From Escherichia coli (GTDB lineage Bacteria; Pseudomonadota; Gammaproteobacteria; Enterobacterales; Enterobacteriaceae): 64,000 nucleotides of DNA. How positions within the stretch are numbered: the stretch's first letter is position 1; every line of letters begins with the position of its first letter. Of this stretch, positions 9,274 through 60,127 are shown one piece after another. The notes beneath the pieces are model-generated. The model saw only the letters and a list, made by a program, of their open reading frames with translations, did not search any database and was not told the DNA's origin. The stretch lies in assembly GCF_029227855.1 (NCBI RefSeq), contig NZ_CP074356.1. One strand, written 5' to 3'. Made by a program: the position numbers and the translations under genes.

Positions 9274-9338
9274 AAACCCGATAGTCTGAACCATCGGGTT
9301 AATGAAACAGGGCGCTATATTTCATAGCGCCTTTTTTT
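9274..9338. terminator. Pair of convergent intrinsic terminators between ybhC and ybhJ
   Basis: Hairpin aacccgat-N11-atcgggtt preceded by an A-run (terminator read on the minus strand) and hairpin ggcgctat-N5-atagcgcc followed by ttttttt (read on the plus strand). Confidence 0.7.
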
Positions 9339-11598
9339 ACATCTGACGGTTTTTATTGAAATTAATCAAACTACCCGCCTTGATAATCTCGCGCTCTTCA
9401 GCAGTCAGACTTTCCATATAGAGCGTAATCTCTGTTACCGGCGCATCTTCATGGATCACATAACCTTTAAACGTCGTACCCGGATTATCCAGCGCCGCTT
9501 TAATGCCAGGGATGTAAATGTAATCCCCCACTTCAAACGTTGGTGCTTCCGCCATTTGCAGCGGTAACATCCCCCAGTTGATGACGTTAGAACGGTAGCG
9601 TTTAGTCGCGTATTCCTCGGCAATATTCGCCAGACCGCCAATCACACGCTGGCAGCTCGCCGCCTGCTCACGCGCAGAACCATCGCCTGGTTTCACCGCA
9701 TAGACCATGCTGCCAATTTCAGTTTGCAGCGGATCAATATGCTCCTGACCAGCAATCTGCTTAATGCGCGCAAACACCTCTGTCAGCTCGCTGACATTCC
9801 CCGCCAGACGCTGATTTTCCAGCTCGGCAGTCGCTTTACTTCTGCCAACATAACCTGGATCGCGGCGTGACAGGGTAAACTCCGCCAGACCAATCGGATT
9901 TGAACGATAAGAAGATGTTTCACCGGAAGGAATCAGTTCGTCGGTGGTGGTGACTTCGTCGAGGATCTTCGAGCACACTTTGAGGACGATATTGTCAGTC
10001 AGCGCACCCAATTCCGGCCAGTCTTTAATGTTCGGTCCGTAAATCAGCGGTTGCTGGGTCGCCCCTTTCACAAAGCCCTGATAAACACGGTTTTTATACG
10101 GCGTTACATCGAAGGCGTACTCCGGCACGTTGTCCCAGCAATCGAGTTCGCTGGCAGAAGTTAAATAGCCACCGTTTGCCGCAGTCGCAGCGATAGAACG
10201 AGCGTCCATCAACGCCACCGCTGACATCTGCCCATTAGCTGGCTTAGAGCCTTCGCGGTTCGGGAAGTTACGCGTAGTGTGGCGAATACTTAAACCGTTG
10301 TTGATTGGCGTATCGCCCGCGCCAAAGCATGGGCCGCAGAACGCGGTTCTGATGATTGCGCCTGCGCCAATCAAATCTGCTACCACACCTTTTTTGGCGA
10401 GATCCATAAACACCGGCTGTGATGACGGGTAAACCGCCAGCGAGAAGGTGTCATTGCCACAGGATTGACCGCGCAGTGCATTCGCCGCCGCGATGACGTT
10501 TTCGTAGTTACCGCCAGAACAGCCCGCGATAATCCCCTGCTGCACTTTCAGGCGACCATTTTCCACTTTATCCAGCAGCGAGAGTTTGGCTTTACCGTGC
10601 GCCACGCGTTCGGACTCAATTTCAATCTCACGCAGAATGTCGGTCAGGTTCTGGTTCAGTGTGTCGATTTCATACACGTTGCTCGGGTGGAACGGCAGCG
10701 CAATCATTGGTTTGATAGCGCTTAAATCAACGCTGATGCAGCCATCGTAGTACGCCATCGGTTGAGGGTTAAGCTGGCAGTAATCCTGGCCGCGACCGTG
10801 CAGCGCCAGCCAGTTATGGACTTCTTCATCGGTTTGCCAGACAGAACTTAAACAGGTCGTTTCAGTGGTCATAACGTCAACGCTGTTACGGAAATCGGTA
10901 GAGAGCGCAGCAACACCGGGACCTACGAATTCCATCACTTTGTTTTTGACGTAGCCGTTTTTGAACACCGCGCCGATAATCGCCAGCGCCACATCCTGCG
11001 GACCCACATACGGAGCAGGTTTTCCGGTCAGATGCACCGCAACCACGTCCGGATAGTCGATATCCCATGTGTCATTAAGCAGTTGTTTTACCAGCTCGCC
11101 GCCGCCCTCACCGACTGCCATTGTCCCTAATGCACCGTAACGGGTGTGGCTGTCTGACCCGAGGATCATTTTGCCGCCGCCTGCCATCATTTCACGCATA
11201 TATTGATGGATAACCGCAATATGCGGAGGCACAAAAATACCGCCATAACGCTGCGCTGCCGATAAGCCAAAAATATGGTCATCACCGTTAATGGTGCCGC
11301 CGACGGCGCAGAGTGAGTTATGGCAGTTGGTCAGCACATACGGCAGCGGGAAACGTTCCATACCCGACGCTTTAGCGGTCTGTACAATACCAACAAAGGT
11401 AATATCGTGAGAGGCTAATGAATCAAACTTAATTTTAAGTTTATCCATATTTCCGGACGTATTATGAGAAGAGAGAATAGACCAGGCAATAGTGCCTTTT
11501 TTTGCTTCTTCTTTTTTAATTTCGCCGGTGAAATGTTCTTCGGCAATTATTTCGTTATTACTGGCGAGAAACACGCCTTTTTCAGATAACTTGATCAT
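9337..11598 (-). CDS. ybhJ: Aconitase-family hydratase YbhJ
   Basis: Long minus ORF (761 aa in track) with aconitase-family sequence; start moved to the ATG giving [10 protein letters not shown]..., which has a GGAG ribosome-binding site 6 nt upstream; the track start is an upstream GTG. Confidence 0.88.
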
Positions 11599-11652
11599 CA
11601 AATGCTCCAGATATCTGCGCACCGAGAAGTGCGCAGAAAGATAATAAATGGA

Positions 11653-11779
11653 TATACTCTAAATAATTCGAGTTGCAGGAAGGCGACAATCGAGTGAATC
11701 CCCAGGAGCTTACATAAGTAAGTGACTGGGGTGAGCGAACGCAGACGCAGCACATGCAACTTGAAGTATGACGAGTATA
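11653..11779. repeat. ERIC (IRU) enterobacterial repetitive intergenic consensus element, 127 bp
   Basis: Contains the two classic ERIC core sequences gtgaatccccaggagcttacat and aagtaagtgactggggtgagcg with flanking inverted ends (agttgcagg ... tgcaactt); sits between the ybhI stop and the ybhJ start. Confidence 0.9.
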
Positions 11780-11780
11780 T

Positions 11781-13214
11781 TTACAGCATGTTCCAGCCGA
11801 TCAGCATATTCCACCACCACACGCCAAGGGTGATATGCACCAGGAAGGTTAATATCGTCAGTACCGCACCGACCAACCACCAGGATTTAATATCGTTATA
11901 ACCCACGCCAAAGATGACCGGACCTGCCGCGCCGCCATAGTGAGTAACCATGCCGCCATAGGAGTTGGAGAACAACAGTGCCAGCGCGGTTAACATTAAC
12001 GGTGCGCCGGAGACGTTCGCCAGCATGGCAAATACCGGTAACATGGCAACGATATAGGCACTACCGGAAGCGAAGAAATAACGCACGATAATGCTGAGGA
12101 AAATAATAACGAAGAAAGCAACGTTACCGTGACCATCAAATGCCAGGTTATTTTTAAAGACTTCAGCTAACCATTCGAAGAATTTAACTTTCGATAATAA
12201 GGAGCTTAAGCCGATAATACCGCCGTACCAGATTAAGGTATTCCAGCCGCCTTTATTTTTAACCACGTCTTCCCAGGTAACGATACCCAGCAGCAGCATA
12301 GTCGCCATAACAACGATTGCCACGGTGGATTCATCAACCCCCAGTGACTTACTGAAAATCCAGCCCAGCAGCGCCAGCACGAAGACACCGAGCAGCATTT
12401 TTTCGCGGATTTTCATCGGTCCCAGTTCGGCAAGGCCCGCTTTGGCGATGGTTTTGTTATCCACCTTCTTAATTTCTGGCGGATACATGGTGTAAATCAC
12501 CAGCGGGGTGACCAGCAGCATAATGATACCCGGCAATCCGGCTGCCAGCGCCCATCCACCCCAGCTAATTTGCAGGTGCAGAATGTCGTTGATCATTTTC
12601 AGCGCCAGAATGTTCCCCGCCATTGCGGTAAAGAACATATAGCTGGTGGTTTTGGTGACCATGTAAATGGACATCATCAGGTAATGTCCGACACGACGCG
12701 GACTTTTTTCCGGTTCTGACCCCAAAGCCACCGCCACGCTGTTGATGATCGGTAACACAATGCCGCCCGCACGCGCGGTGTTAGACGGTGTTGCCGGAGC
12801 CAGTACCAGATCGAGGAATACCGTAACGTAACCCAGACCCAGCGTGGTGTTACCGATTTTACCAATCAGCAGATAGGCAATACGTTTACCTAAGCCGGTG
12901 GTCACAAATGCGGCGCTTAAGGTAAACGCGGAGAACACCAGCCAGGTGGTACCTGAAGAGTAACCGCTTAATACGGCGGTGGTCTTAAACGCACCGTCGG
13001 ATAAGTTACCGACCACCACCATGGAGGCAGCAACGGCAATTAACAGTACGACAGGTTCCGGGAAAGGCTTGATAACCAGCCCCACAATGGCCGCCAGGTA
13101 AATACCAAAAAGCACCCACGCCAGTTCGCTTAATCCTGCCGGAGCTGGCATAAAGCCAATAATACATGGGATCGCTAATATCAGAATTAGCTTCCATAAC
13201 GATTTTTTATTCAT
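11781..13214 (-). CDS. ybhI: DASS-family anion transporter YbhI (putative di/tricarboxylate carrier)
   Basis: 477 aa hydrophobic ORF MNKKSLWKLILILAIPCIIGFMPAPAGL... matching YbhI. Confidence 0.92.
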   Translation of the reverse strand: MNKKSLWKLILILAIPCIIGFMPAPAGLSELAWVLFGIYLAAIVGLVIKPFPEPVVLLIAVAASMVVVGNLSDGAFKTTAVLSGYSSGTTWLVFSAFTLSAAFVTTGLGKRIAYLLIGKIGNTTLGLGYVTVFLDLVLAPATPSNTARAGGIVLPIINSVAVALGSEPEKSPRRVGHYLMMSIYMVTKTTSYMFFTAMAGNILALKMINDILHLQISWGGWALAAGLPGIIMLLVTPLVIYTMYPPEIKKVDNKTIAKAGLAELGPMKIREKMLLGVFVLALLGWIFSKSLGVDESTVAIVVMATMLLLGIVTWEDVVKNKGGWNTLIWYGGIIGLSSLLSKVKFFEWLAEVFKNNLAFDGHGNVAFFVIIFLSIIVRYFFASGSAYIVAMLPVFAMLANVSGAPLMLTALALLFSNSYGGMVTHYGGAAGPVIFGVGYNDIKSWWLVGAVLTILTFLVHITLGVWWWNMLIGWNML

Positions 13215-28259: not shown

Positions 28260-28284
28260 ACGTCATTCGTTTAAAAAATAAATA

Positions 28285-28310
28285 TCCTCCGGCATAGCCG
28301 GAGGTTTTTC
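28285..28310 (+). terminator. Intrinsic terminator after gpmA
   Basis: Hairpin tcctccggc-ata-gccggagg followed by ttttt. Confidence 0.8.
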
Positions 28311-28324
28311 AAATGCGCCTATAA

Positions 28325-29025
28325 GGCTCTCTTACCAGCCGCGCCCTAACAGGCGCACACGATCTGACATTTGCATCCAACTTCGTTACTTACGGCCCGT
28401 AAACGGGCTGCCCGGATAGGGAATCGATAACTGCTCTCCCATTTTATCCTCTTCAAGCTGGTGCTTTATGTAATCCTGTATCTTCGCCGTGTTCTTACCC
28501 ACTGTATCGACGTAGTACCCTCTGCACCAGAACTCCCTGTTCCTGTATTTGAATTTCAAATCACCAAACTGCTCGTAAAGCATCAGACTGCTTTTCCCTT
28601 TCAGATATCCCATAAACCCGGATACGCTCATTTTGGGCGGGATCTCCACAAGCATATGGATATGATCTGCACAGCATTCAGCTTCCAGAATCCGTACGCT
28701 TTTCCACTCACACAGCTTTCTCAAAATACTGCCTATTGCTCTACGCTTCTCTCTGTAGAACACCTGTCTTCGGTATTTTGGCGCAAAAACTATGTGATAT
28801 TTACAGTTCCATCGGGTGTGCGCTAAGCTCTTTTCGTTCCCCATTGGGACCCCCTTTTGATTTCTTGTTTGACACTTGCAGTTGCCAGACCGCAAAGTGT
28901 TTTAACAAATCAAAAGGGGTTTTAATAACTGGCTCAAAGCTGAAAGCTTTCCGGAACCCCCAGCCTAGCTGGGGGTTTTCTGTGCACAATGAGAAAGCCG
29001 ACTGCAAGTGAGTCGGCTTTTTTGT
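28325..29025 (-). mobile_element. IS200-family insertion sequence (IS200/IS605 group); ends approximate
   Basis: Contains a Y1 HuH transposase gene; on the transposase-upstream side there are two strong hairpins characteristic of the IS200 left end (aacccccagc-ctag-gctgggggtt at about 28951-28975 and aagccgactgc-aagt-gagtcggctt plus T-run at about 28994-29025); about 700 bp total, the expected IS200 size. Confidence 0.75.
28386..28844 (-). CDS. tnpA: IS200-type transposase TnpA (Y1 HuH transposase, 152 aa)
   Basis: MGNEKSLAHTRWNCKYHIVFAPKYRRQVFYREKRRAIGSILRKLCEWKSVRILEAECCADHIHMLVEIPPK... with the HxH motif (HIHML) and catalytic-Tyr region; start trimmed from the ORF track to the internal Met. 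Confidence 0.9.
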   Translation of the reverse strand: MGNEKSLAHTRWNCKYHIVFAPKYRRQVFYREKRRAIGSILRKLCEWKSVRILEAECCADHIHMLVEIPPKMSVSGFMGYLKGKSSLMLYEQFGDLKFKYRNREFWCRGYYVDTVGKNTAKIQDYIKHQLEEDKMGEQLSIPYPGSPFTGRK

Positions 29026-44564: not shown

Positions 44565-45018
44565 AACCAACCAAATATGTTAATTGTGTATAAACCATAG
44601 ATCATTGGTGATTTTATTGTTAATTTATTGTGAAATATTTATGCAACACAATTATTACAATGAAAAGGTATAGATAAAAAACCAGTGTTTTATTTAACAG
44701 AACCGCCTTATCCACTTTTTATAATACCAATTGATTAGATTAGCCAATTTGTTGCTATTTTACATAACATATTTTTATCAAAGTTAATTGATTGTTGCGT
44801 TTATGAGCACCGGCCGTAAGCCCGTTATGTTATTGTTTCATTAGTAATAATCACTTAAATGTATCGATGAAACAGGTATGACTTAGCGGGAGTGATTGTT
44901 TCTGAGTGAACAGAGACCACTTTCGCCTGATAAATGAAAAATGAGCGATTTTTGCAAGTTAGTTTTTCTATAGCCGAGTACGCTCAGCGCCTCGCTTGAT
45001 TACAATGAGGTTGCTGCT

Positions 45019-45963
45019 ATGAGTCCTGATAATATCAGTTCTGCTGTCAATCGCTTCTCAGGTTGGCCATCTAATGATCCTCTAAAAACAGATAAAGAAT
45101 CAATGACATCACCCATGACTGTGCAGGTAATAAAGATGATTGCCGCCATCCTTGACCCACATCGGATAGTCGTTGGAATCGATACACTTTATACAACGCA
45201 GCGCGAAACATTTACCTCAGAGAGTCAACAGCTCATTGAATCAGCATTGCAAACACTTCATGTGATGAATTTAAATAACCTGGAAACAAATCTCGATGAG
45301 GAAGGTCACTATCTGGCTTTTGGATATAACGTTGACACTCCTGACAGAATAACCGTTTCTGCTTATAATGAAAAAAAGCCTGGCTGCTATGGCCAATGTC
45401 TTTTAATACAGGATGACGAAACAGACTTATTTAACCTGATAAAAGTTAAAATTTTTGAAGCCAGGCATAATTATGTCGCTCAATTGATGAGCGATCCGGA
45501 ATTTATGTTCAAATTTAGTTATAGCGCTCAACAAAATAGATTAGAACCTCATCTTCTGGTTCCCACTTATTTCCCTCTAAAAACAAACGAACCGGTTACG
45601 CAAGAGGATGTACTGTTACTTTATCGTTTCTTTAAAATGGATGGTGATTTTAATATATTAACATCAGATGAATACATGAGTATCATGACACCTCTAATGA
45701 AGTGTGAGCGTAGCATCCACGACCACAACAGGTATGTGACGGGCAAAGATACCCTTCTTCTGGACTATCCTCCTTCTGGTAACCAGATATATTTCCATAT
45801 TTTTCCTGACGAATCAGCAACACTAGTCCTTTATTTTTCAAACAATGACATTGAATGTTTCGTCTTTGAAAGAGATATTCCGAGCCAGTATCGCTTTTTC
45901 AAAATGTTTACCAATCTGGCACTGGTTATTGATCAGTTAACCGATGCCAATCAAATACTTTAA
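45019..45963 (+). CDS. Hypothetical protein, 314 aa, AT-rich accessory gene; no family recognised
   Basis: A long open frame in DNA that is markedly AT-rich (where chance ORFs of this length are unlikely); polar Ser/Thr/Pro-rich N-terminus (MSPDNISSAVNRFSGWPSNDPLKTDKESMTSP), no signal peptide or transmembrane segment evident. Confidence 0.6.
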   Translation: MSPDNISSAVNRFSGWPSNDPLKTDKESMTSPMTVQVIKMIAAILDPHRIVVGIDTLYTTQRETFTSESQQLIESALQTLHVMNLNNLETNLDEEGHYLAFGYNVDTPDRITVSAYNEKKPGCYGQCLLIQDDETDLFNLIKVKIFEARHNYVAQLMSDPEFMFKFSYSAQQNRLEPHLLVPTYFPLKTNEPVTQEDVLLLYRFFKMDGDFNILTSDEYMSIMTPLMKCERSIHDHNRYVTGKDTLLLDYPPSGNQIYFHIFPDESATLVLYFSNNDIECFVFERDIPSQYRFFKMFTNLALVIDQLTDANQIL

Positions 45964-46043
45964 TTTTTATATATTCCCTGTGGCAAATATTGCTAAACAA
46001 TGCCCGGGGATTAATTTTTATTACTCACGGAAAGATTTAAATA

Positions 46044-46466
46044 ATGATCCCATCTCAAATCTCTTTCAACACCCTTCCTGTCAATGCAACATACGCTTCA
46101 GAGACAACAGTTGACACACAAAAATTCTCTGACATCCTCTACTCAGCGGGGTGTTCCCTAAAGGATCTGGCTTATTTGAGCAGATGTCTGGCATCAATAC
46201 ATCCGACTATCGCCAAAAACATTTATGAAACAGAAAATCTCAGCGATCAAAAATTACTACATATTGATTGCCGTAGTACAAATGAAATCAAGATAAATAT
46301 CTTTTTTGGTCGACAACGAGAAGGATTAATTGAAATTAGTTCTGACACAGTCATTTTTTCGATACTGTCTTCATTGATTGACTCCACCATTTCTAAATTT
46401 CAACACCAAAACCCCGTTAACGGTTCTGTAAATCCTGACCTATTGTATGAGGATTATACTGATTAA
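46044..46466 (+). CDS. Hypothetical protein, 140 aa, AT-rich accessory gene; no family recognised
   Basis: ORF 81 bp downstream of the previous gene on the same strand; predominantly acidic, Ser/Thr-rich N-terminus (MIPSQISFNTLPVNATYASETTVDTQKF). Confidence 0.5.
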   Translation: MIPSQISFNTLPVNATYASETTVDTQKFSDILYSAGCSLKDLAYLSRCLASIHPTIAKNIYETENLSDQKLLHIDCRSTNEIKINIFFGRQREGLIEISSDTVIFSILSSLIDSTISKFQHQNPVNGSVNPDLLYEDYTD

Positions 46467-47013
46467 ATCCCTCCTGTCGCGAAAAATGGCCTGCGTTATT
46501 GCCAGACGTAATAAAACTTTTGATTAACGTTTCTCGTACTGGTAGCACCCTCATGTACTTTTCTTTTTTACGAAAAATCAAAAGAGCTAACAAAGGTCAT
46601 AATTCGCATGAATCATTAATTATTTGTTATTTTCAACATTATTTTTACATTAAGCAGAGATGAATTGCAGTGAAATTCGACTTAACTTTTATGAAATGCA
46701 TTTACTCATGGCTAAAGCCACGTCACAAAAATGCAAATTAGAAGTTGATCACAATTATCTCAATACATCAAATCAAGTTAATTTTAAAAATTTAACATTC
46801 ATGACATCAGTTGACATAACACACTGAATTAAAATGAGAATTTGAAAACACACTTTAAACAATCATTTCCCGAAAGACATTTTGAAAATAGATCAATTGC
46901 AACATTACGGTCAGATAAAGACACTCCTGTGATATTAAACCTGTGCCGTTATGAACGGCCATAAATACGACGTGTGTAACTTATTTTACTCTCTGTCTTA
47001 CAAAGGATTACCC

Positions 47014-47463
47014 ATGAAGAAAGCAACACTTGTGATTGGCGTTATTGGCGCGGACTGCCATGCAGTAGGCAATAAAGTTCTGGACCGCGTTTTTAGCAAC
47101 CATGGCTTCAGAGTCATTAATCTGGGCGTAATGGTCAGCCAGGACGAATATATTGATGCTGCCATTGAAACTGGTGCTGACGCGATTGTCGTCTCCTCTA
47201 TCTATGGGCATGGCGATATCGACTGTCTGGACATGCGCGAACGCTGCATCGAGCGTGGACTGGGGGACATCCTGCTCTATGTGGGCGGTAACCTGGTGGT
47301 CGGAAAACATGACTTCGCTGACGTGGAAACCAAATTCAAAGAGATGGGATTTGATCGCGTCTTTGCCCCAAGTCATGACTTAGAAGATGTTTGTCAGCTG
47401 ATGGCCCACGATATCAACCAACGTCATGACGTTGATACTCGTATTCTTGAAGAGGCAATCTGA
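47014..47463 (+). CDS. Glutamate mutase S (sigma) component, B12-binding subunit (methylaspartate mutase small subunit)
   Basis: From the ATG at 47014 (AAGGAT ribosome-binding site): [62 protein letters not shown]...; the DxHxxG cobalamin-binding motif (DCHAVG) and strong similarity to clostridial GlmS/MutS as I remember it. The ORF-track upstream extension is rejected. Confidence 0.88.
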
Positions 47464-48851
47464 TGCAAATCGTCTCTGTCGATATTGGATCGACGTGGAC
47501 CAAAGCAGCCCTCTTCGCCCGGGAGGGGGACGCGTTAACGTTGGTTAACCACGTACTGACCCCAACCACCCCCCATCATCTGGCGAAGGGGTTTTTCTCC
47601 AGTCTGAACCTGGTGTTAAACGTAGATGATGCCCTCCCCCTGTTTAACAGCGGTGAGGTTGCATTGAAGTATTCCTCCTCTGCCAAAGGTGGGCTGGCGG
47701 TTGCCGCAATGGGATTGGTGCCTTCTATCACCCTGGAAACCGCGAAAGTAACCGCTCACTCTGCGGGGGCTAAAATTGCGCAATATTACGCCTACAAGCT
47801 GAACCGCCGTGATATCCAGGCACTGGAAGAAACGCAGCCCGATATTCTCTTGTTCACCGGCGGCACCGACGGCGGAGAAGAAAGCTACGGCCTGAATAAC
47901 GCCCGTGTGCTGGCAGAATCCAAACTCGACTGCGCCATTATTTATGCCGGAAACCGGGATATTCAGGACAAGGTGCAGGAGATCCTAGGGCATAAAGACC
48001 TGACCATCGTCGACAACGTTCTGCCCGATCTTGACCATCCGAACCCTTTAGCTGCACGCCAGGCTATCTGCGACATATTCCTTAAACGCATCGTTAAAGG
48101 GAAAGGGCTGGATGTCGTTGTTGATAAAACAGGCGAAGAACCAATGCCGACACCGTGGACAGTCTTTGAACTGGTTAAGGCAATCAGTAATGTCGATCAC
48201 AGCTGGAAAGAGTTCATGCTGATCGACATGGGCGGCGCAACCACCGATGTCTATTCCGCCTGTGCCAACACGCTCTCGCCCGACACCGTTTTACACGGCG
48301 TACCGGAACCCTTCGTGAAACGGACGGTGGAAGGCGATCTGGGAATGCGCGTCTCGGCAATGGTGGTTGGTGAAAGTGCGAAAGAGTTAGTCAATGTGAA
48401 TTTTGCTCAGCAACCCGCACAGCTGGACGCTTTTTATCATTACCTCCGTCATCTAGTCGCTCATCCCGACTACTTACCCGCGAATTCAGAAGAAAAATAT
48501 TTCGATACCGTCCTGGCCGGACTGTGTGTGGGTTATGCCACCGAAAGACATGCGGGCACCAAAAAAGAGGTCTGCACCTGCGTCGGCAATGTCGATTTAC
48601 AGATGGGACGTGACCTGACAACCGTGCGTAAAGTCGTCGGATCCGGCGGATGGCTCTCGCGTGCCAGTCAGTTCGATATGCATCACTGGTTGAAATACCG
48701 CAAGTTAAACGACGACGGTAAACGCATTCTCTTACCGACCGAATTTGAATATTACCGCGATTCCCGGGGGCTATTACCATTGCTGGCAAACGTCGCCAGA
48801 GTCGATCCGCTGGCCGCCGCGCGCACCAGTATTCAATGCTTAACCCTATAA
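47463..48851 (+). CDS. Glutamate mutase L component (MutL/GlmL-like accessory/reactivating protein)
   Basis: 462 aa [39 protein letters not shown]... (actin-like ATPase N-terminus); start overlaps the stop of the preceding gene (TGATG); position between the S and E subunits as in clostridial operons. Confidence 0.8.
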   Translation: MQIVSVDIGSTWTKAALFAREGDALTLVNHVLTPTTPHHLAKGFFSSLNLVLNVDDALPLFNSGEVALKYSSSAKGGLAVAAMGLVPSITLETAKVTAHSAGAKIAQYYAYKLNRRDIQALEETQPDILLFTGGTDGGEESYGLNNARVLAESKLDCAIIYAGNRDIQDKVQEILGHKDLTIVDNVLPDLDHPNPLAARQAICDIFLKRIVKGKGLDVVVDKTGEEPMPTPWTVFELVKAISNVDHSWKEFMLIDMGGATTDVYSACANTLSPDTVLHGVPEPFVKRTVEGDLGMRVSAMVVGESAKELVNVNFAQQPAQLDAFYHYLRHLVAHPDYLPANSEEKYFDTVLAGLCVGYATERHAGTKKEVCTCVGNVDLQMGRDLTTVRKVVGSGGWLSRASQFDMHHWLKYRKLNDDGKRILLPTEFEYYRDSRGLLPLLANVARVDPLAAARTSIQCLTL

Positions 48852-48869
48852 CAATTAAGGCTGCAATCA

Positions 48870-50315
48870 ATGGAACTTCGAAATAAGAAATTAACCCATG
48901 ACGAATTCATGACCGAGCGGCAACAGGTACTGAAAACCTGGGAAACCGGCAAGGATGTTGAAAACTTTGAAGATGGCGTTAAATACCAACAAACCATTCC
49001 TGAGCATAAACGCTTCTCTCTTGCGCTGTTGAAAGCAGACAAGGAAGGTAAAACCCTTAGCCAACCGCGCGCAGGTGTGGCGCTGATGGACGAACACATC
49101 GAACTACTGAAAACACTACAAGAAGAGTGCGATCTGCTGCCGAGCACTATCGATGCATATACCCGTCTGAATCGGTACGAAGAAGCGGCTGTAGGGATTA
49201 AAAAATCCATCGAAGCCGGAACCTCTAAACTGAACGGTTTGCCGGTAGTTAACCATGGCGTCGCAGCTTGCCGTCGCCTCACCGAAACCCTGCAAAAACC
49301 GCTACAGATCCGCCACGGCACGCCAGATGCGCGTCTGCTGGCTGAAATCTCGATGTCCAGCGGCTTTACCAGTTACGAAGGCGGCGGCATTTCCTACAAC
49401 ATTCCGTATGCCAAACGCGTAACGCTGGAAAAATCGATCCGCGACTGGCAGTACTGCGACCGTTTAATGGGGATGTATGAAGAACACGGGATCCGCATCA
49501 ACCGCGAACCGTTTGGCCCACTAACAGGTACGCTGATCCCGCCGTTTATCTCGCACTCTATCGCGATAATCGAAGGCTTGCTGGCGCTGGAACAGGGTGT
49601 GAAATCTATCACCGTTGGTTATGGACAGGTCGGCAGCCTGACGCAGGATGTTGCGGCGATCCAGTCTCTGCGTGAACTTGCACACGAATATTTTCAGAGC
49701 TATGGCTATACCGACTATGAATTAAGTACCGTGTTTCACCAGTGGATGGGCGGCTTTCCGGAAGACGAATCGAAAGCGTTCGCTATTATCTCCTGGGGCG
49801 CAGCCGTCGCGGGGATGTCTGGTGCCACCAAAGTCATCACCAAAAGCCCGCACGAAGCCTGGGGTATCCCGACTGCCGCTGCCAACATTCAGGGGCTGAA
49901 AGCCTCCCGCCAGATGCTCAACATGGTCAACGAGCAGAAATTCCCGCCGTGCCCTGCGGTTGAACTGGAAATTGAACTGATTAAGAGCGAGGTTCGCGCG
50001 GTACTGAATAAAGTGTTCGAACTGGGTAATGGTGATATTGCGCGCGGTACGGTGCTGGCATTTGAAGCGGGCGTACTGGATGTGCCGTTTGCGCCAGCCG
50101 CCTGCAACGCGGGCAAAATTCTTCCGGTCCGTGACAACACCGGCGCGATACGCGTACTGGAAGCCGGAGCCGTTCCATTGCCAAAAGATATTCTCGACCT
50201 CCACCACGATTACGTTGCTGAACGCGCACGCTTTGAAGGACGCCAACCGACATTCCAGATGGTTGTAGATGACATCAATGCTGTATCCCACAGTAAATTA
50301 ATAGGAAGACCATAA
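48870..50315 (+). CDS. Glutamate mutase E (epsilon) catalytic subunit (methylaspartate mutase large subunit)
   Basis: 481 aa ORF MELRNKKLTHDEFMTERQQVLKTWETGKDVENFEDGVKYQQTIPEHKRFSLALLKADKEGKTLSQPRAGVALMDEHIELLKTLQ... matching remembered GlmE/MutE. Confidence 0.88.
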   Translation: MELRNKKLTHDEFMTERQQVLKTWETGKDVENFEDGVKYQQTIPEHKRFSLALLKADKEGKTLSQPRAGVALMDEHIELLKTLQEECDLLPSTIDAYTRLNRYEEAAVGIKKSIEAGTSKLNGLPVVNHGVAACRRLTETLQKPLQIRHGTPDARLLAEISMSSGFTSYEGGGISYNIPYAKRVTLEKSIRDWQYCDRLMGMYEEHGIRINREPFGPLTGTLIPPFISHSIAIIEGLLALEQGVKSITVGYGQVGSLTQDVAAIQSLRELAHEYFQSYGYTDYELSTVFHQWMGGFPEDESKAFAIISWGAAVAGMSGATKVITKSPHEAWGIPTAAANIQGLKASRQMLNMVNEQKFPPCPAVELEIELIKSEVRAVLNKVFELGNGDIARGTVLAFEAGVLDVPFAPAACNAGKILPVRDNTGAIRVLEAGAVPLPKDILDLHHDYVAERARFEGRQPTFQMVVDDINAVSHSKLIGRP

Positions 50316-51556
50316 TGAAAATAAAACAGGCCCTTTTTACCGCTGGCTACTCCTCATTCTATTTCGATGACCAGCAGGCGATAAAAAACGGAGCGGGTCA
50401 CGACGGTTTTTTTTATACCGGGGAGCCAGTAACACAGGGGTTTAACGCCGTACGTCAGGCCGGGGAGTGCGTATCGGTACAGTTGATTCTGGAAAACGGC
50501 GCGGTCGCCGTAGGTGACTGTGCTGCCGTACAGTATTCCGGGGCAGGCGGTCGCGATCCACTGTTCCTCGCGGAGCACTTTATTCCGTTCCTCAACGACC
50601 ATATCAAGCCATTACTGGTAGGCCGCGATGTGGATGTTTTCCTGCCGAATGCCCGTTTCTTCGACAAATTGCGTATTGACGGCAACTTGCTGCATACCGC
50701 CGTGCGCTACGGATTATCACAGGCTCTGCTTGATGCTACCGCGCTGGCAACCGGCCGTCTGAAAACTGAAGTGATCTGTGATGAATGGCAGTTGCCACGC
50801 GTGGCGGAATCCATTCCATTATTTGGTCAGAGCGGGGACGATCGATATATCGCCGTCGATAAGATGATCCTTAAGGGCATCGACGTGCTGCCCCATGCGC
50901 TGATTAATAACGTCGAAGAGAAGCTGGGCTTTAAAGGTGAAAAACTGCGCGAATATGTCCGCTGGTTGTCGGATCGCATTCTGAGCAAGCGCACCAGCGC
51001 ACGCTACCACCCAATCCTGCACATCGATGTATACGGCACTATCGGTCTGATCTTCGATATGGATCCGCTTCGCTGTGCGCAATACATCGCCAGCCTGGAA
51101 AAAGAAGCGCAAGGCCTGCCGCTCTACATTGAAGGGCCGGTCGATGCCGGTAACAAGCCCGATCAAATTCGCCTGCTGACCGCGATTACCAAAGAGCTGA
51201 CGCGCCTCGGTTCCGGCGTGAAACTAGTGGCCGATGAATGGTGTAACACCTACCAGGATATTGTTGATTTCACAGATGCCGCCAGTTGCCACATGGTGCA
51301 AATCAAAACCCCGGATCTGGGCAGTATTCACAACATCGTCGATGCAGTTCTTTATTGCAACAGCCACAGCATGGAAGCGTACCAGGGCGGCACCTGCAAT
51401 GAAACTGATGTCAGTGCCCGCACCTGTGTCCACGTCGCCCTTGCCGCTCGCCCCATGCGTATGCTGGTAAAACCAGGGATGGGCTTTGACGAAGGCCTCG
51501 ATATCGTCTTCAACGAAATGAATCGTACTATCGCGCTGTTGCAGGCTAAGGATTAA
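50315..51556 (+). CDS. 3-methylaspartate ammonia-lyase (methylaspartase; enolase superfamily)
   Basis: 413 aa ORF MKIKQALFTAGYSSFYFDDQQAIKNGAGHDGFFYTGEPVTQGFNAVRQAGECVSVQLILENG... with conserved blocks (CAAVQYSGAGGRDPLFLA, QSGDDRY, LPHALINNVEEKLG, HMVQIKTPDLG, AKPGMG) shared with the clostridial enzyme; start overlaps the preceding stop. Confidence 0.9.
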   Translation: MKIKQALFTAGYSSFYFDDQQAIKNGAGHDGFFYTGEPVTQGFNAVRQAGECVSVQLILENGAVAVGDCAAVQYSGAGGRDPLFLAEHFIPFLNDHIKPLLVGRDVDVFLPNARFFDKLRIDGNLLHTAVRYGLSQALLDATALATGRLKTEVICDEWQLPRVAESIPLFGQSGDDRYIAVDKMILKGIDVLPHALINNVEEKLGFKGEKLREYVRWLSDRILSKRTSARYHPILHIDVYGTIGLIFDMDPLRCAQYIASLEKEAQGLPLYIEGPVDAGNKPDQIRLLTAITKELTRLGSGVKLVADEWCNTYQDIVDFTDAASCHMVQIKTPDLGSIHNIVDAVLYCNSHSMEAYQGGTCNETDVSARTCVHVALAARPMRMLVKPGMGFDEGLDIVFNEMNRTIALLQAKD

Positions 51557-51559
51557 CAA

Positions 51560-52930
51560 ATGGCTCGTTCTTTTAAAGTCTTATCGCCAACGGCAATCCT
51601 CGGGTATGGATTCCCGGAAGAGAGCTTCCGCAAAGCGATGGCAGAATCGCCCGATCTGATCGCCGTTGATGCAGGCTCTTCCGATCCTGGCCCCCACTAC
51701 CTCGGGGCGGGCAAACCGTTTACCGATCGCGCAGGGGTCAAGCGCGATCTGCGCTATATGATCACCGCAGGCGTGCAAAATAATATACCGGTGGTGATCG
51801 GAACGGCCGGCGGTTCTGGTGCCGCTCCACACCTGGAGTGGTGCCGAGAAATAATTCATGAGATTGCCCGGGAAGAGCACCTCTCGTTCTCGATGGCGTT
51901 GATCCCGGCAGACGTTGACAAAGCCATCGTCCACCAGGCGCTGGATAACGGCAAAATCACGGCGCTGGAGTTTGTCCCGCCGTTAACCCACGACGCGATT
52001 GACGAAAGTACGTATATCGTTGCGCAAATGGGCATCGAACCCTTCCAGCGGGCGCTGAAAGAAGGCGCGCAAGTGGTGCCGGGCGGGCGCGCTTACGACC
52101 CGGCCTGCTTTGCTGCGCTTCCGATCATGCAAGGCTTTGATGAAGGTCTGGCGCTTCATTGTGGGAAAATCCTTGAATGCGCGGCAATCGCCGCAACGCC
52201 CGGCTCAGGCTCTGACTGTGCGATGGGCATCATTGATGACAACGGCTTTACGCTGAAGACATTTAATCCGAAGCGTAAATTTACCGAAACGTCAGCAGCT
52301 GCACACACACTGTATGAGAAATCCGATCCCTACTTCCTGCCTGGACCTGGCGGCGTGTTGAACCTGAAAGGCTGCACATTTAAAGCGGTCAATGACAGCG
52401 AAGTGTACGTCAGCGGTTCTAAGCATGAAGAAACGCCGTATTCCCTGAAACTGGAAGGTGCGCGACGGGTGGGCTTCCGCTGTCTGACCATCGCAGGAAC
52501 GCGCGACCCGATCATGATCGCCGGGATCGATAAAATCATCGATGAAGTCAAAACCAGCGTTTCGCGTAACCTGTCGCTCGACGATGACAGCATTCACATC
52601 AATTTCCACCTGTACGGCAAAAACGGGGTGATGGGCGACCATGAACCGATGCAAACTGCCGGGCATGAGCTGGGGATTGTCCTAGATGTAGTTGCGCCGA
52701 CCCAGGAAATTGCCAACAGCGTTTGCTCGCTGGTGCGCTCTACTATGCTGCACTACGGCTATGAAAACCGCATCGCTACCGCAGGCAACCTGGCGTTCCC
52801 GTTCTCCCCTTCTGATATCCAGGGCGGGCCGGTATACGAATTTTCCATATATCACCTGATTGAAGCCAACGACGCTCTGCGTTTTGATTTCCATATTGAA
52901 CAGGTGACGCCAGAAGGAGTTCAGGCATGA
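51560..52930 (+). CDS. Conserved hypothetical protein, 456 aa (possibly DUF1446/AtuA-like; assignment from memory, unverified)
   Basis: ORF MARSFKVLSPTAILGYGFPEESFRKAMAESPDLIAVDAGSSDPGPHYLGAGKPF... begins 4 bp after the methylaspartase stop; no catalytic motif I can name. Confidence 0.6.
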   Translation: MARSFKVLSPTAILGYGFPEESFRKAMAESPDLIAVDAGSSDPGPHYLGAGKPFTDRAGVKRDLRYMITAGVQNNIPVVIGTAGGSGAAPHLEWCREIIHEIAREEHLSFSMALIPADVDKAIVHQALDNGKITALEFVPPLTHDAIDESTYIVAQMGIEPFQRALKEGAQVVPGGRAYDPACFAALPIMQGFDEGLALHCGKILECAAIAATPGSGSDCAMGIIDDNGFTLKTFNPKRKFTETSAAAHTLYEKSDPYFLPGPGGVLNLKGCTFKAVNDSEVYVSGSKHEETPYSLKLEGARRVGFRCLTIAGTRDPIMIAGIDKIIDEVKTSVSRNLSLDDDSIHINFHLYGKNGVMGDHEPMQTAGHELGIVLDVVAPTQEIANSVCSLVRSTMLHYGYENRIATAGNLAFPFSPSDIQGGPVYEFSIYHLIEANDALRFDFHIEQVTPEGVQA

Positions 52931-53244
52931 AACAGTCAATTGTCTCACTGGCGCAAGTCATTCGTTCGAAAAATGCCGGACCTTACGAACTGGTTTTAGA
53001 TATTTTATTTAAAACGAAAGAAAACTATGAGCGAGTTAAATCATCAGGGCAATTAACCCCAGAACTGATTGCGCGCTTATATCATGTTGAACCTGACTTT
53101 ATTCACCGTATTGTCTGGTTTGATCCTTCTAACGCAGTAAAAATCGTCATGCCACGAGATATTATCTCCGGGAATGTAGGTGACAATGATGTCTATGGTG
53201 CACAGCAACATGCACCTTTATTAAATATGAGTTTCGATTTGTAA
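52927..53244 (+). CDS. Conserved hypothetical protein, 105 aa (possibly DUF4387-like partner of the preceding gene; unverified)
   Basis: ORF MKQSIVSLAQVIRSKNAGPYELVLDILFKTKENYERVKSSGQLTPELIARLYH...; start codon overlaps the stop of the upstream gene (ATGA), implying translational coupling. Confidence 0.55.
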   Translation: MKQSIVSLAQVIRSKNAGPYELVLDILFKTKENYERVKSSGQLTPELIARLYHVEPDFIHRIVWFDPSNAVKIVMPRDIISGNVGDNDVYGAQQHAPLLNMSFDL

Positions 53245-53404
53245 AAATCCGAATACTTTTAGCCAACTGACATCCCGTCACTTATTGCAGTTCAACACTT
53301 CAGCTATTTGTAAGGTTGTAATAGCAGGTAGATGCCTGAATCTCTATTCAGGCATCTACTTCTCCTGATTCTGATTTATCGCCGTGCACCTGATGGAGGA
53401 AAAA

Positions 53405-54685
53405 ATGAAGAAAATAAGTTTAACCACGATGATTCTTTTGGCGCTGGTACTTGGAATGATTATCGGCGTAGTGCTCAATAACACTGCTTCACCGGAAACC
53501 GCAAAACTCTATGCGCAAGAAATATCGATATTCACGACGATTTTCTTACGACTGATAAAAATGATTATCGCTCCGTTAGTGGTCTCTACCCTGGTGGTAG
53601 GTATAGCTAAAATGGGCGATGCCAAAGCCCTTGGTCGTATTTTTTCTAAAACACTCTTTTTATTTATTTGCGCCTCATTGCTGTCAATTGCCTTAGGCTT
53701 GATAACAGTAAATTTCTTCATGCCAGGCACAGGAATTAATTTTGTTGCACACGGAGCCGAAACCACCGGAGTGGTCGCGTCAGAACCCTTTACGCTAAAA
53801 GTATTTATTTCGCATGCTTTCCCCACCAGCATTGTCGATGCCATGGCGCACAATGAAATTTTGCAAATCGTGGTGTTCTCAATTTTCCTCGGCTGTAGCC
53901 TGACGGCGATTGGCGAGAAAGGCAGCGCCATCGTTCACGCCTTAGATTCGCTGGCACATGCCATGTTAAAGCTCACTGGCTACGTCATGCTCTTCGCTCC
54001 CCTGACCGTATTCGCTGCTATTTCAGCATTGATTGCTGAACGAGGACTGGCAGTTATGGTGAGCGCCGGGATCTTTATGGGTGAATTTTATTTCACCATG
54101 TTATTACTTTGGGTGCTGCTTATCGGTCTGGCCATCGTTTATGTTGGCCCCTGCATCAGACGCCTGACCCGCGCCCTTTCGGAACCCGCCCTGCTGGCAT
54201 TTACCACATCCAGTTCTGAAGCGGCTTTTCCGGGAACGCTTGAAAAACTGGAGCAATTTGGCGTTTCCCCAAAAATTGCCAGTTTTGTCTTACCCATTGG
54301 CTACTCATTTAATCTCGTTGGATCAATGGCCTACTGCTCCTTCGCCACAGTTTTCATCGCCCAGGCCTGCAATATCCATTTATCCATCGGTGAGCAAATC
54401 ACCATGCTGTTGATCCTGATGTTGACCTCGAAAGGAATGGCTGGCGTACCACGCGCCTCAATGGTGGTTATCGCCGCCACGCTCAACCAGTTCAATATTC
54501 CGGAAGCGGGGCTGATCTTGCTGATGGGCGTTGATCCGTTCCTTGATATGGGGCGTTCAGCGACAAACGTCATGAGCAACGCAATGGGCGCTGCGATGGT
54601 GAGTCGGTGGGAAGGCGAACATTTCGGCGAGGGCTGTCGGGGTAAAGCATTAAAACCCAATGAATCGAACGTTGCTCTGCCCTGA
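53405..54685 (+). CDS. Dicarboxylate/amino acid:cation symporter (DAACS family; GltP/DctA-like)
   Basis: From the ATG at 53405 (GGAGGA ribosome-binding site): MKKISLTTMILLALVLGMIIGVVLN... multi-pass membrane protein with DAACS-type layout; substrate not inferable from sequence alone. Confidence 0.8.
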   Translation: MKKISLTTMILLALVLGMIIGVVLNNTASPETAKLYAQEISIFTTIFLRLIKMIIAPLVVSTLVVGIAKMGDAKALGRIFSKTLFLFICASLLSIALGLITVNFFMPGTGINFVAHGAETTGVVASEPFTLKVFISHAFPTSIVDAMAHNEILQIVVFSIFLGCSLTAIGEKGSAIVHALDSLAHAMLKLTGYVMLFAPLTVFAAISALIAERGLAVMVSAGIFMGEFYFTMLLLWVLLIGLAIVYVGPCIRRLTRALSEPALLAFTTSSSEAAFPGTLEKLEQFGVSPKIASFVLPIGYSFNLVGSMAYCSFATVFIAQACNIHLSIGEQITMLLILMLTSKGMAGVPRASMVVIAATLNQFNIPEAGLILLMGVDPFLDMGRSATNVMSNAMGAAMVSRWEGEHFGEGCRGKALKPNESNVALP

Positions 54686-54792
54686 GGGGGATCTTAAGCA
54701 ATCAGAAGCCAATGACTACGCATTTTTATAAGCCGGATCATGAAGTTAGACGGCAATTAAGTAAAACTAACGTTTAAGGTGAAAAGTGAAAT

Positions 54793-56445
54793 ATGTCCAA
54801 ACCATTTATCTGGCAAGAACCGTTTCTACAAAATAAAGACGGTACAGAATATACATTAATTAGCGATCAACATATTACAGTAACGGAATTAGACGGCGAA
54901 GAAGTAATAAAAATCGCTCCTGAAGCATTAACGCTGCTTGCCCGGCAGGCATTTTATGAAGCCTCTTTTTTCTTACGTTCCGCTCATTTGCAACAGGTCG
55001 CCAGCATTCTTAACGATCCGCAGGCCAGTAGTAATGATAAATACGTTGCGTTGCAGTTATTACGTAATGCTGAAGTCTCAGCAAAAGGGGTATTACCCAA
55101 CTGTCAGGATACCGGCACCGCAACTATTGTTGCCAGTAAAGGGCAACAGATATGGACGGGAGGTAACGACGCTGAAGCCTTAAGCAAAGGCATTTACACC
55201 ACTTTTCAGGAAAATAATCTGCGCTTTTCACAAAATGCGCCACTGGATATGTTTACCGAAGTCAATACGCAAACCAATCTCCCGGCGCAGATTGATATCA
55301 GCGCCGTCGCTGGTGATGAGTACCATTTTCTCTGTATTAATAAAGGGGGCGGCTCTGCCAATAAAGCCGCGCTTTATCAGGAAACCAAATCCCTATTGCA
55401 ACCAGAAAAACTGACCGCATTTTTAATCGAAAAAATGAAATCGCTGGGCACCGCTGCCTGCCCGCCTTACCACATCGCCTTTGTCGTCGGAGGACTTTCA
55501 GCCGATCAAACCTTAAAAGTTGCCAAGCTGGCCTCAACGAAATATTACGACAATTTGCCCACCAGCGGAAACGAGCAAGGACAAGCATTCCGTGATATTG
55601 AGCTGGAAAAAGTATTGCTCGAGGCCAGTCAGCAATTTGGTATTGGTGCGCAATTTGGGGGTAAATATTTCGCTCATGATATTCGCGTCATTCGTCTGCC
55701 GCGTCACGGTGGCTCTTGCCCGATAGCTATGGCGCTCTCCTGTTCTGCGGATCGCAATATCAAAGCAAAAATTAACAAGCACGGTATCTGGCTGGAAAAA
55801 CTCGAACACAATCCGGGGCAATATATTCCAGCCTCACTGCGGGAAGAAAATCACGCGCAACATGTACAGCTGGATCTAAACCGTCCGTTGCGTGACGTGA
55901 TGCAGGATCTCGCCAGATTACCGGTAGGCACCCGCGTGTCGTTAAGTGGTCCCATCGTAGTGGCGCGCGATATCGCCCACGCCAAAATAAAAGCGCGGCT
56001 GGATAGCGGCGAACCGATGCCGGATTACCTGAAGCATCATATTGTCTATTACGCTGGCCCGGCGAAAACACCGGAGAACATGGCCTGCGGTTCACTGGGT
56101 CCAACCACGGGCGGTCGAATGGACGGTTATGTCGATACCTTCCAGGCGGTTGGCGGCAGTCTGGTGATGTTATCGAAAGGTCACCGCAGCCAGCAGGTCA
56201 CCGATGCCTGTCACAAACATGGCGGCTTCAATCTGGGAAGTATTGGCGGTGCAGCTGCGTTACTGGCGCAAGAATATGTCAAAAGTCTGCGTTGCCTGGA
56301 ATACCCGGAGCTGGGTATGGAAGCGGTGTGGATGATGGAAGTGGAAAATCTGCCCGCATTCATCCTGGTAGATGATAAAGGCAATAATTTCTTTAGTCAG
56401 TTTGAGCAGCAACACCGCTGCGCCAGTTGCCCTGCGGGACATTAA
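54793..56445 (+). CDS. fumD: Class I (Fe-S) fumarate hydratase paralogue; probable mesaconase/fumarase
   Basis: 550 aa [65 protein letters not shown]... collinear with remembered FumA/FumB (e.g. [41 protein letters not shown] blocks). The symbol is from my recollection of a described O157:H7 paralogue. Confidence 0.85.
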
Positions 56446-56454
56446 GGAAAATGA

Positions 56455-57057
56455 ATGGAAGCGCGAATTTCAACTGAACGGCATGTGCAGCGCCAGCAGA
56501 AATTGAAGGAACAGGTCGATACGCGCATCGCGGCGGCGATAGAGAAAAAAGGGATTTTGATTGTTTTCACCGGCAATGGCAAAGGGAAATCCACTGCCGC
56601 GTTTGGTACTGTGACGCGCGCGGTGGGTCATGGCAAAACGGTGGGGGTTGCGCAGTACATCAAGGGGCAATGGGACAACGGCGAATACAACCTTCTCCAG
56701 CCGCTGGGGGTTGAGTTTCATATTATGGGAACCGGTTTTACCTGGGAGACACAGAACCGGCAAGCGGATATCGACGCGGCGAAAGAGGTCTGGTCGGAAA
56801 GCAAACGGATGCTGGCTGACAAGCGTTACGACTTAGTGGTGCTTGATGAGCTGACCTATATGCTGGCTTACCATTATCTGGATACCGAAGAAGTGATCGC
56901 TTCTCTGCAAAACCGCCCGGCACAACAAAGTGTCATTGTCACCGGACGCGGTTGCCACAGTCAGATATTAAAAATGGCGGATACGGTCAGCGAAATCCGC
57001 CCCGTCAAACATGCTTTTGATAACGGCATTCAGGCGCAGCCGGGTATCGACTGGTAA
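56455..57057 (+). CDS. Cob(I)alamin adenosyltransferase paralogue (CobA/BtuR family)
   Basis: 200 aa ORF with P-loop GNGKGKSTAAFG and blocks shared with E. coli BtuR (RAVGHGK, TGFTWETQNR, LDELTYM, GRGCH, ADTVSE, RPVKHAF). Confidence 0.85.
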   Translation: MEARISTERHVQRQQKLKEQVDTRIAAAIEKKGILIVFTGNGKGKSTAAFGTVTRAVGHGKTVGVAQYIKGQWDNGEYNLLQPLGVEFHIMGTGFTWETQNRQADIDAAKEVWSESKRMLADKRYDLVVLDELTYMLAYHYLDTEEVIASLQNRPAQQSVIVTGRGCHSQILKMADTVSEIRPVKHAFDNGIQAQPGIDW

Positions 57058-57090
57058 TAACTGCGCCTGGCATCCCGCCAGGCGCAGGTT

Positions 57091-57996
57091 TTACATCTCC
57101 TGCGGTACAACCGATTTCGCCAGCAACCATTCACGAAATTGCTGCAAGTGCGGTGAGTCAGACTTCTCTTCCTGCCACGTCATAATAAAACGATTACCGG
57201 TACGAATAGGCACATCACAGGGGATCACCATATCGCCACTATCCAAATCATGTTGAATAGCGAAACGTGGTAACAGCGCCACGCCGAGATTAGAGCGCAC
57301 GGCGGCAATCAGCATTGAAAGCAAATCGAAACGTGGTCCGTTGTTGACCAGTGGACTGCTAACGCCAGATAAAGCAAACCACTCTTCCCAGCCAGTAATA
57401 CGGGTGCTTTGATGCAGAAGTGGTAACTCAGTAAGCAGTTCTGCCACTGACAGTTTTTGATCGGACATTGCAAGCAAACTGCCGCTGCATACCGGCAAAA
57501 TCTCCTCATCAAAGAGATATTCTACTTCCGCCCAGGGCGCGCAAAAATTTTCGCGCATAATGACAGCATCGTACTCCCGATTAAGAAAATCGCCGTTATT
57601 AGCTAAAGAGTGAATATTAACAATAATATCGGGATGTAACTTTGTGAATTCATGTAAATTTGGGATTAACCAGTGGGTACTAAACGTAGGATTCACGGCA
57701 AGTTCAATAACCTGAACCGTAGGCTGCCAGGTCATAATAGTATTGGTATCGCGTTCCAGCTTATTTAATGTTTCTTTTACTATCCCCAGGTAATACTTCC
57801 CTGCATCATTAAGAAAAATACGTTTTTTAGAGTGTGAAAATAACGGAGTATGTAAAAATTCCTCCAGCGCACTCACTTGTCTGAATACAGCACTTTGGGT
57901 TAACGCTAACTCCTCTGCCGCTCTGGTATAACTTTCATAACGTGCGACGACCTCAAAAGTCACCAGCAGCTCCGTTTTAGGTATTTTTCCTCGCAT
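57091..57996 (-). CDS. LysR-family transcriptional regulator
   Basis: Minus ORF with N-terminal helix-turn-helix (LVTFEVVARYESYTRAAEELALTQSAVFRQVSALEEFL) and a LysR substrate-binding domain; start assigned to the Met of MRGKIPKTELL (the ORF track begins 10 codons upstream); start uncertain. Confidence 0.8.
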   Translation of the reverse strand: MRGKIPKTELLVTFEVVARYESYTRAAEELALTQSAVFRQVSALEEFLHTPLFSHSKKRIFLNDAGKYYLGIVKETLNKLERDTNTIMTWQPTVQVIELAVNPTFSTHWLIPNLHEFTKLHPDIIVNIHSLANNGDFLNREYDAVIMRENFCAPWAEVEYLFDEEILPVCSGSLLAMSDQKLSVAELLTELPLLHQSTRITGWEEWFALSGVSSPLVNNGPRFDLLSMLIAAVRSNLGVALLPRFAIQHDLDSGDMVIPCDVPIRTGNRFIMTWQEEKSDSPHLQQFREWLLAKSVVPQEM

Positions 57997-58209
57997 AATT
58001 CCGTCCGTGAAAAAATAACAATTCAAAAATTATTTTATAAAAAACAGTAGCACTAATGAATATCATAATTCAAATAAACAAACCAGTCAGCTATATGTCT
58101 AACCAGGAAAATAAAGTGACAATAATCCTAAAACAGGAATTTCACCTCAGTTATCCGCATGCAATACTTTAAAGCTATTATTGCAAGAATATTATTCATA
58201 TACATGAAT

Positions 58210-58334
58210 ATACTCTAAATAAGTCAAGTTGCAGGAAGGGAACAAATAATGAATTTCCAGAAGCTTACATAAGTAAGTGACCTGAGTGAGCGAACATCGA
58301 TGCAGCACATGCAACTTGAATTATGACAAGTATA
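58210..58334. repeat. Diverged ERIC (IRU) element
   Basis: tatactctaaataagtcaagttgcaggaagg ... agcttacataagtaagtgacctgagtgagcgaac ... gcagcacatgcaacttgaattatgacaagtata aligns along its length with the ERIC copy at 11653-11779, with substitutions. Confidence 0.8.
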
Positions 58335-59983: not shown

Positions 59984-60127
59984 CTGAAATGATAAATGGC
60001 CTGCGGTTCTCACGCAGGTCAAATCTGGTATCTGCGTAAGCTAACAAACTTGTTTATCAACAATCTCAGGCCATCCGAAGATGGCCTGAAATTATTGCCC
60101 CCCTTAGATACACTTTTAGCGCAATAA

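Follow-up and report, generated by a model that had tools for sequence, protein, structure and literature searches.

Consensus alignment identifies two ERIC elements in a 64-kb Escherichia coli window, one essentially fixed between ybhI and ybhJ and one apparently decayed within an accessory island

The stretch of Escherichia coli DNA analyzed here, 64,000 nucleotides long and called the window below, carries two copies of ERIC, an element described since 1990–91. According to our alignments, both copies are assigned to ERIC (IRU, RU-1), the miniature inverted-repeat element of about 127 bp found in Enterobacterales. We are highly confident of the overall explanation, in which copy A is the ancestral ERIC of the ybhI-ybhJ spacer, essentially fixed in E. 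coli, and copy B an old, decayed ERIC situated at a seam between modules. Both copies represent biology that is already known, copy A being the same element as the one in K-12.

11653–11779, minus strand: ERIC copy A, from consensus alignment and RNA fold
58209–58334, minus strand: ERIC copy B, decayed, in the same strand orientation as copy A

Copy A measures 127 bp (TATACTC...GAGTATA) and copy B 126 bp, with one 1-nt deletion, and the two are 84.3% identical over 127 columns (BLAST within the window, E = 5.6e-35). Both were aligned with the 127-nt E. coli ERIC/RU-1 consensus of Wilson & Sharp and with the Salmonella SeRU-1 sequence (Delihas 2007, PMC2759123, Table 1a). Copy A is 88.2% identical to the former and 92.9% to the latter, and the corresponding values for copy B are 75.6% and 79.5%. 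The initial annotation had named both copies ERIC, and the successful alignment bears this out. It had also placed a second, diverged copy in the intergenic region between the LysR- and RtcB-family genes; the copy is there, starting at 58209 and not at 58210. The published orientation of the consensus corresponds to the minus strand of the window for copy A and copy B alike. Both are intergenic and have TATAC...GTATA ends, with 7-bp terminal inverted repeats and TA termini; terminal inverted repeats, a target-site duplication and TA termini are listed for ERIC in Table 1 of PMC2229807. A BLAST search of the 64-kb window (word size 7, E ≤ 10) found no third ERIC copy or fragment. With copy A as query, the number of ERIC places per E. 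coli genome had a median of 12 and ranged from 3 to 21.

ERIC1R and ERIC2 are the standard primers of ERIC-PCR, their sequences appearing side by side in 233 papers, and copy A matches both exactly in the two arms of its central inverted repeat.

11694–11715, plus strand: complement of primer ERIC1R with 0 mismatches, forming the left arm of the central inverted repeat
11716–11737, plus strand: site of primer ERIC2 with 0 mismatches, forming the right arm of the same repeat

Neither primer found a match in 100 dinucleotide-preserving shuffles. The exact ERIC1R complement and ERIC2 site at 11694–11737 confirm the earlier description of a 127-bp ERIC with both core sequences between ybhI and ybhJ. 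In copy B these sites are degraded yet recognizable, with 3 mismatches to ERIC2 and 4 to the ERIC1R complement; the latter count comes from direct reading, since the ERIC1R search tolerated 3 mismatches and skipped the site. Because both primer sites contain mismatches, ERIC-PCR would probably not prime from copy B.

The copy A locus is present in 5330 of the 5426 complete E. coli genomes (98%), including K-12. Presence was scored with a 327-bp query (100 + 127 + 100 bp) at a coverage of at least 80%, of which an ERIC-less site would reach only 61%. In BLR(DE3), the one non-carrier examined, the flanks of copy A are absent too. A precise empty site would be expected to read ...GCTGTAAATATCCATTT... 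with a single TA. A 48-nt junction query, to which only a precise empty site could respond, revealed no empty-site or excision allele in the 5426 genomes. Outside Escherichia, the ybhI-ybhJ spacers examined in Salmonella enterica and Intestinirhabdus alba contained no ERIC. Neither did the corresponding spacers in Klebsiella aerogenes and Enterobacter hormaechei, both of which have an extra transporter gene between ybhI and ybhJ. In these four ERIC-less genera the spacers have diverged too far for an alignment spanning the site where copy A is inserted. As the element occurs at this site in nearly all E. coli and is missing from the spacer in four other genera, copy A appears to be an insertion of the Escherichia lineage that is now essentially fixed in E. 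coli.

The position of copy A relative to its neighbors is defined by the following features.

9337–11598, minus strand: ybhJ, flanking copy A
11596–11598, minus strand: ATG that starts ybhJ, 54 nt past ERIC along the mRNA (RefSeq annotation of JNEC-KY178)
11614–11637, minus strand: 10-bp GC-rich hairpin, not part of ERIC (-17 kcal/mol, z -5.0)
11781–11783, minus strand: TAA that ends ybhI, followed along the mRNA by 1 nt and then the ERIC hairpin
11781–13214, minus strand: ybhI, flanking copy A

Read along the minus strand, the order is the ybhI TAA, 1 nt, ERIC, an AU-rich spacer of 15 nt, the 10-bp GC hairpin, a GGAG ribosome-binding site and the ybhJ ATG. The consensus strand of copy A is the one transcribed through ybhI and ybhJ, and when the whole spacer is folded, the first paired base of the ERIC stem comes directly after the ybhI stop codon. 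A simple scan of the ybhI-ybhJ spacer found no promoter-like or terminator-like site. Gene order and this crude scan suggest that copy A is co-transcribed with ybhI and ybhJ. The RNA of copy A folds as one long hairpin, with -40.6 kcal/mol (z -5.4 vs shuffles) on the minus strand, which is the RNA made by ybhI-ybhJ transcription, and -49.4 kcal/mol (z -7.7) on the plus strand, which folds better and is not made by these genes. The neighboring hairpin at 11614–11637 is a perfect 10-bp stem in which K-12 and the window differ in the loop only. By eye, Intestinirhabdus and perhaps Salmonella also have GC-rich inverted repeats ahead of ybhJ. In a predicted protein of 763 aa (P0009), transporter domains of YbhI (98% identity, covering 93% of YbhI) are joined to an Aconitase_C domain; this may reflect, in one assembly or another, a fusion or deletion that spans the ybhI-ERIC-ybhJ junction.

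As recounted in the reviews PMC2229807, PMC3184786 and PMC10969869, Yersinia ERICs are co-transcribed with their neighbors and, in one orientation, lower the upstream message via an RNase E site unmasked in the 3′ arm (De Gregorio et al. 2005). By analogy, an effect of copy A on mRNA stability is plausible. Transcription reading through from ybhI on the minus strand would give a long hairpin with its base 1 nt past the ybhI stop. As the stem begins so close to the stop codon, a ribosome terminating at ybhI would have to open it, and would hold its base open. The open stem would expose the AU-rich stretch GAAUUAUUUAG, located in the 3′ arm of the transcribed strand, to RNase E, and the ybhI and ybhJ parts of the transcript would then differ in stability, as proposed for stop-codon-adjacent Yersinia ERICs. 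On general grounds, we take GAAUUAUUUAG to be a putative RNase E site and copy A to lie in the destabilizing orientation. One orientation is reportedly the destabilizing one, and copy A would match it, judging from the position of its AU-rich arm. The initial annotation had proposed that ERIC copies yield structured RNA that can affect the stability of the flanking mRNA; this fits copy A, located between same-strand genes, but not copy B, located between divergent ones. That copy A really affects the balance of ybhI and ybhJ mRNA by this mechanism is a tentative proposal, somewhat short of an even chance; otherwise it would be a tolerated, neutral hairpin.

We give an even chance to copy A being a neutral, fixed relic of an old insertion, one that is merely transcribed along and leaves the expression of ybhI and ybhJ unchanged. 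The number and positions of ERICs do look largely static in E. coli, as judged from the median of 12 places, the 98% occupancy and the lack of an excision allele, and the cluster also occurs, ERIC-free, in four other genera. Such a relic would nevertheless be expected to drift, and copy A has no private change when compared with copy B, the E. coli consensus and SeRU-1, and lies 1 nt away from a second ERIC between cusC and cusF. This sameness is unexpected for unconstrained old DNA, unless it results from gene conversion or recent copying. The site itself, 1 nt from a stop codon, also belongs to the class reported to act on mRNA in Yersinia.

The cusC-cusF ERIC, known here from K-12 and B-lineage strains (K-12 spacer L022, 2475–2631; BLR(DE3), L007, 3001–3128), differs from the ybhI-ybhJ ERIC by a single nucleotide. 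It starts 6–7 nt after the cusC stop codon, and the same end of the element faces the upstream stop codon. Because the ybhI-ybhJ copy is essentially fixed, the near-identity of the twins needs copying shortly before E. coli diversified, gene conversion or constraint. It seems unlikely to us that selection or gene conversion keeps the twins alike because they work inside their operons to adjust how strongly the two flanking genes are expressed relative to each other, instead of being inert relics. Copy A is a clear case of an ERIC located 1 nt past a stop codon, and together with its cus-operon twin it would make a convenient pair on which to test, in E. coli, the mRNA-stability model from Yersinia.

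Copy B is located in an accessory island, within an AT-rich segment between two divergent genes.

44585–60124: 15.5-kb accessory island between cydA and mngB, with boundaries from BLAST against K-12 MG1655
57091–57996, minus strand: LysR-family gene, flanking copy B
58015–58477: 463-bp AT-rich segment (30.5% G+C) carrying copy B, specific to this island variant
58586–59983, plus strand: RtcB-family gene, flanking copy B

According to the RefSeq annotation, the island contains methylaspartate-pathway, LysR-family and RtcB-family genes. It has no counterpart in K-12 MG1655, where the gap between mngB and cydA is 846 bp, and it replaces 475 bp of that spacer.

At 16 positions, copy B differs privately where copy A, the E. 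coli consensus and SeRU-1 all agree. Eleven of these differences are GC-to-AT and 3 are AT-to-GC; the private substitutions include TTCCAGAAG and GACCTGAGTG. The G+C content of copy B is 36.5%, compared to 46–49% for the other three sequences and 26–31% for its own flanks. Since the private changes are mostly GC-to-AT and match the AT-rich flanks, copy B is best read as an old ERIC decayed by AT-biased mutation toward its AT-rich surroundings. Its RNA folds at about -30 kcal/mol (z -3.0 and -3.1 on the two strands), down from the -41/-49 kcal/mol of copy A, which is weaker than copy A and still beyond nearly all shuffles. When compared with the minus-strand structure of copy A, 35 of the 41 pairs are kept (28 unchanged, 5 with a one-sided change and 2 with compensatory double changes) and 6 are broken, some of them in the conserved core CCCCAG/CUGGGG stem. 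The 35 pairs kept and the two compensatory double changes may indicate some constraint on copy B. The element provides an example of AT-biased ERIC decay in AT-rich accessory DNA.

A different origin would have copy B not decayed at all, but belonging to a distinct ERIC subfamily of another genus that arrived intact with imported DNA. No relative of the 463-bp carrier turned up among the other island variants or plasmids, which points to its import from elsewhere, and the adjoining RtcB gene has relatives of 57–63% identity in Betaproteobacteria, Gilliamella and Snodgrassella. Yet among the 5426 E. coli genomes and 72,556 plasmids the closest ERIC to copy B is about 85% identical, and the private core of copy B has no exact match in the metagenome collection; for both reasons, there is no sign of a B-like subfamily. 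(One plasmid match, H207, measures 4.9 Mb and is evidently a chromosomal sequence deposited among plasmids.) The private changes, moreover, are strongly GC-to-AT, fit the AT-rich flanks and disrupt the conserved core helix. We therefore regard an intact import as quite improbable and retain the decay of an old ERIC as the preferred reading.

Copy B occupies a region of 589 bp with about 30% G+C, 213 nt from the start codon of the LysR-family gene and 252 nt from that of the RtcB-family gene. Lying between divergent genes, it is in no 3′ UTR and no operon-internal spacer, and an effect on mRNA stability is unsupported. It is likely to be a relic without function at this place. That it supplies promoter or regulatory sequence to the two divergent genes is very improbable: one promoter-like match directed toward the LysR gene (58219–58191, minus strand) does have its -35 hexamer inside the left end of copy B, and another, toward RtcB, lies just upstream of copy B (58168–58195, plus strand), but the 5 promoter-like matches are no excess at 30% G+C over the 2.9 ± 1.7 of shuffles, the conserved 108 nt preceding the RtcB gene are retained where strains and genera lack copy B, and the LysR gene is found in roughly a thousand genomes without it.

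The 463-bp segment is found whole in 144 of the 5426 E. coli genomes, at 95–100% identity, and about 1,100 genomes match some part of a 951-bp LysR/RtcB query. To its left, homology to O157-type islands ends at 58014; past this point, the O157-type and ETEC islands have unrelated DNA, short remnants of the RtcB 3′ end, and sucD. To its right, homology to the RtcB modules of other strains and genera begins at 58478. From 58478 onward, exactly 108 nt of upstream sequence and the RtcB gene itself are common to the window, EC42405, a Citrobacter MAG and Escherichia sp. MOD1-EC7003; because the sequence further upstream is unrelated, the module boundary at 58477/58478 is sharp. The 463-bp segment is unrelated to each of the spacers it was compared with, namely those from O157, ETEC4070, EC42405, Citrobacter sp. 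and Escherichia sp. MOD1-EC7003. The O157-type spacer is homologous to a cryptic Escherichia spacer (67% identity), and neither is related to the segment of the window. In plasmids, only the ERIC part of the segment finds matches, at no more than 85%, and the non-ERIC flanks have no relative. Copy B is thus not a property of the island in general, given that the segment is present in 144 genomes only and the others have different DNA; the comparisons place it in a filler segment at the seam between the methylaspartate/LysR and RtcB modules.

A 48-nt junction query found no empty site of copy B in the 5426 E. coli genomes or in metagenome contigs. The single candidate match proved to contain the element after all, its third base being changed by a SNP. 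Presence or absence among E. coli genomes was one of the checks suggested in the initial annotation, and its outcome is that copy A occurs in 5330 and the copy B segment in 144 of 5426, with no empty-site allele for either. The same annotation had deduced from copy B that the island had resided in an enterobacterial genome long enough to acquire a repeat, or had been transferred with it. This is only half right: copy B is limited to the 463-bp segment and 144 genomes, and no empty site shows that it was inserted where it is now found.

Two further candidates were rejected. The module breakpoints do not coincide with copy B: the left one is 195 bp away from it and the right one 143 bp. The bases shared by copies A and B just outside their left termini (7/9, ATAAATGGA vs ATACATGAA) are not meaningful either, because the cusC-cusF copy lacks this likeness and both flanks are AT-rich. 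In a single strain, JNE23-011, an internal deletion of the island ends 10 nt from copy B.

Several observations were made on the surroundings. The sucD-cydA interval is a mosaic hotspot, for which at least five states can be told apart.

K-12: mngRAB only
O157/ETEC: methylaspartate island, without RtcB or mng genes; RtcB 3′ remnants beside sucD
EC42405: hut genes and a split RtcB
Window: island, RtcB and mngBAR
JNE23-011: island deletion ending 10 nt from ERIC copy B

Copy B marks a segment of one variant (144/5426) of the mosaic island at this hotspot and is a possible typing marker. The 108 nt before the RtcB gene (58478–58585) are almost invariant in EC42405, the Citrobacter MAG and Escherichia sp. 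MOD1-EC7003; they have no Rfam match, and their RNA fold is unremarkable (z -1.8). The RtcB-family gene at 58586–59983 encodes 465 aa and is an orphan, with neither rtcA nor rtcR beside it. Relatives of its product at 94–95% identity were seen only in Citrobacter and cryptic Escherichia, and the next ones, at 57–63%, in Betaproteobacteria (Massilia, Acidovorax, Undibacterium, Saezia, Snodgrassella) and Gilliamella. The window as a whole is nearly identical to E. coli JNEC-KY178, and strain 7/2 matches too. Relative to JNEC-KY178, it has an insertion of about 711 bp between gpmA and aroG (28277–28988). This contains an ORF (28386–28895, minus strand) whose product, MGNEKSLAHTRWNCKYHIVFAPKYRR..., looks TnpA-like (IS200/IS605) on reading its sequence, and an Rfam STnc490 match at 28854–28977 (144.6 bits); the insertion appears to be an IS200-type element.

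Rfam contains no ERIC family and, at gathering thresholds, gave no match at copy A or copy B. At permissive thresholds, copy A aligns end to end with the Vibrio antisense RNA AS5 (V_AS5, RF02818; 11652–11775, whole 129-position model, 49.7 bits, E = 4.7e-10), yet stays far under the gathering score of 96, and copy B reaches 17.9 bits (E = 0.77). With scores this far below 96, membership of either copy in V_AS5 was rejected; it is the Vibrio RNA family that is evidently ERIC-like. The Salmonella isrH model (RF01391) also gave a weak partial match, at 11643–11781 (E = 0.008), and both Rfam families seem to contain ERIC-like sequence.

Among known systems, the stop-codon-adjacent ERICs of Yersinia enterocolitica resemble copy A in lying between same-strand genes with the stem 1 nt after the upstream stop, and in having an AU-rich stretch in the 3′ arm of the transcribed strand. 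In Y. enterocolitica the upstream mRNA is reported to be lowered via RNase E (De Gregorio et al. 2005), whereas for ybhI-ybhJ it is the layout that is known, from which we infer the equivalence of orientation. The cusC-cusF ERIC of K-12 and B strains has the same orientation relative to its operon as copy A; it differs in its locus and flanks and in the first base of the left terminus (CATACTC vs TATACTC on the window plus strand). When compared with ERIC/IRU/RU-1 as described (Sharples & Lloyd 1990; Hulton et al. 1991; Wilson & Sharp 2006), the elements are alike in length, similarity to the consensus, central inverted repeat, terminal inverted repeats, intergenic site and long RNA hairpin. 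Copy A shows no difference from that description, while copy B departs from it by its 16 private substitutions or deletions, its damaged core helix and its setting between divergent genes, not downstream of a gene.
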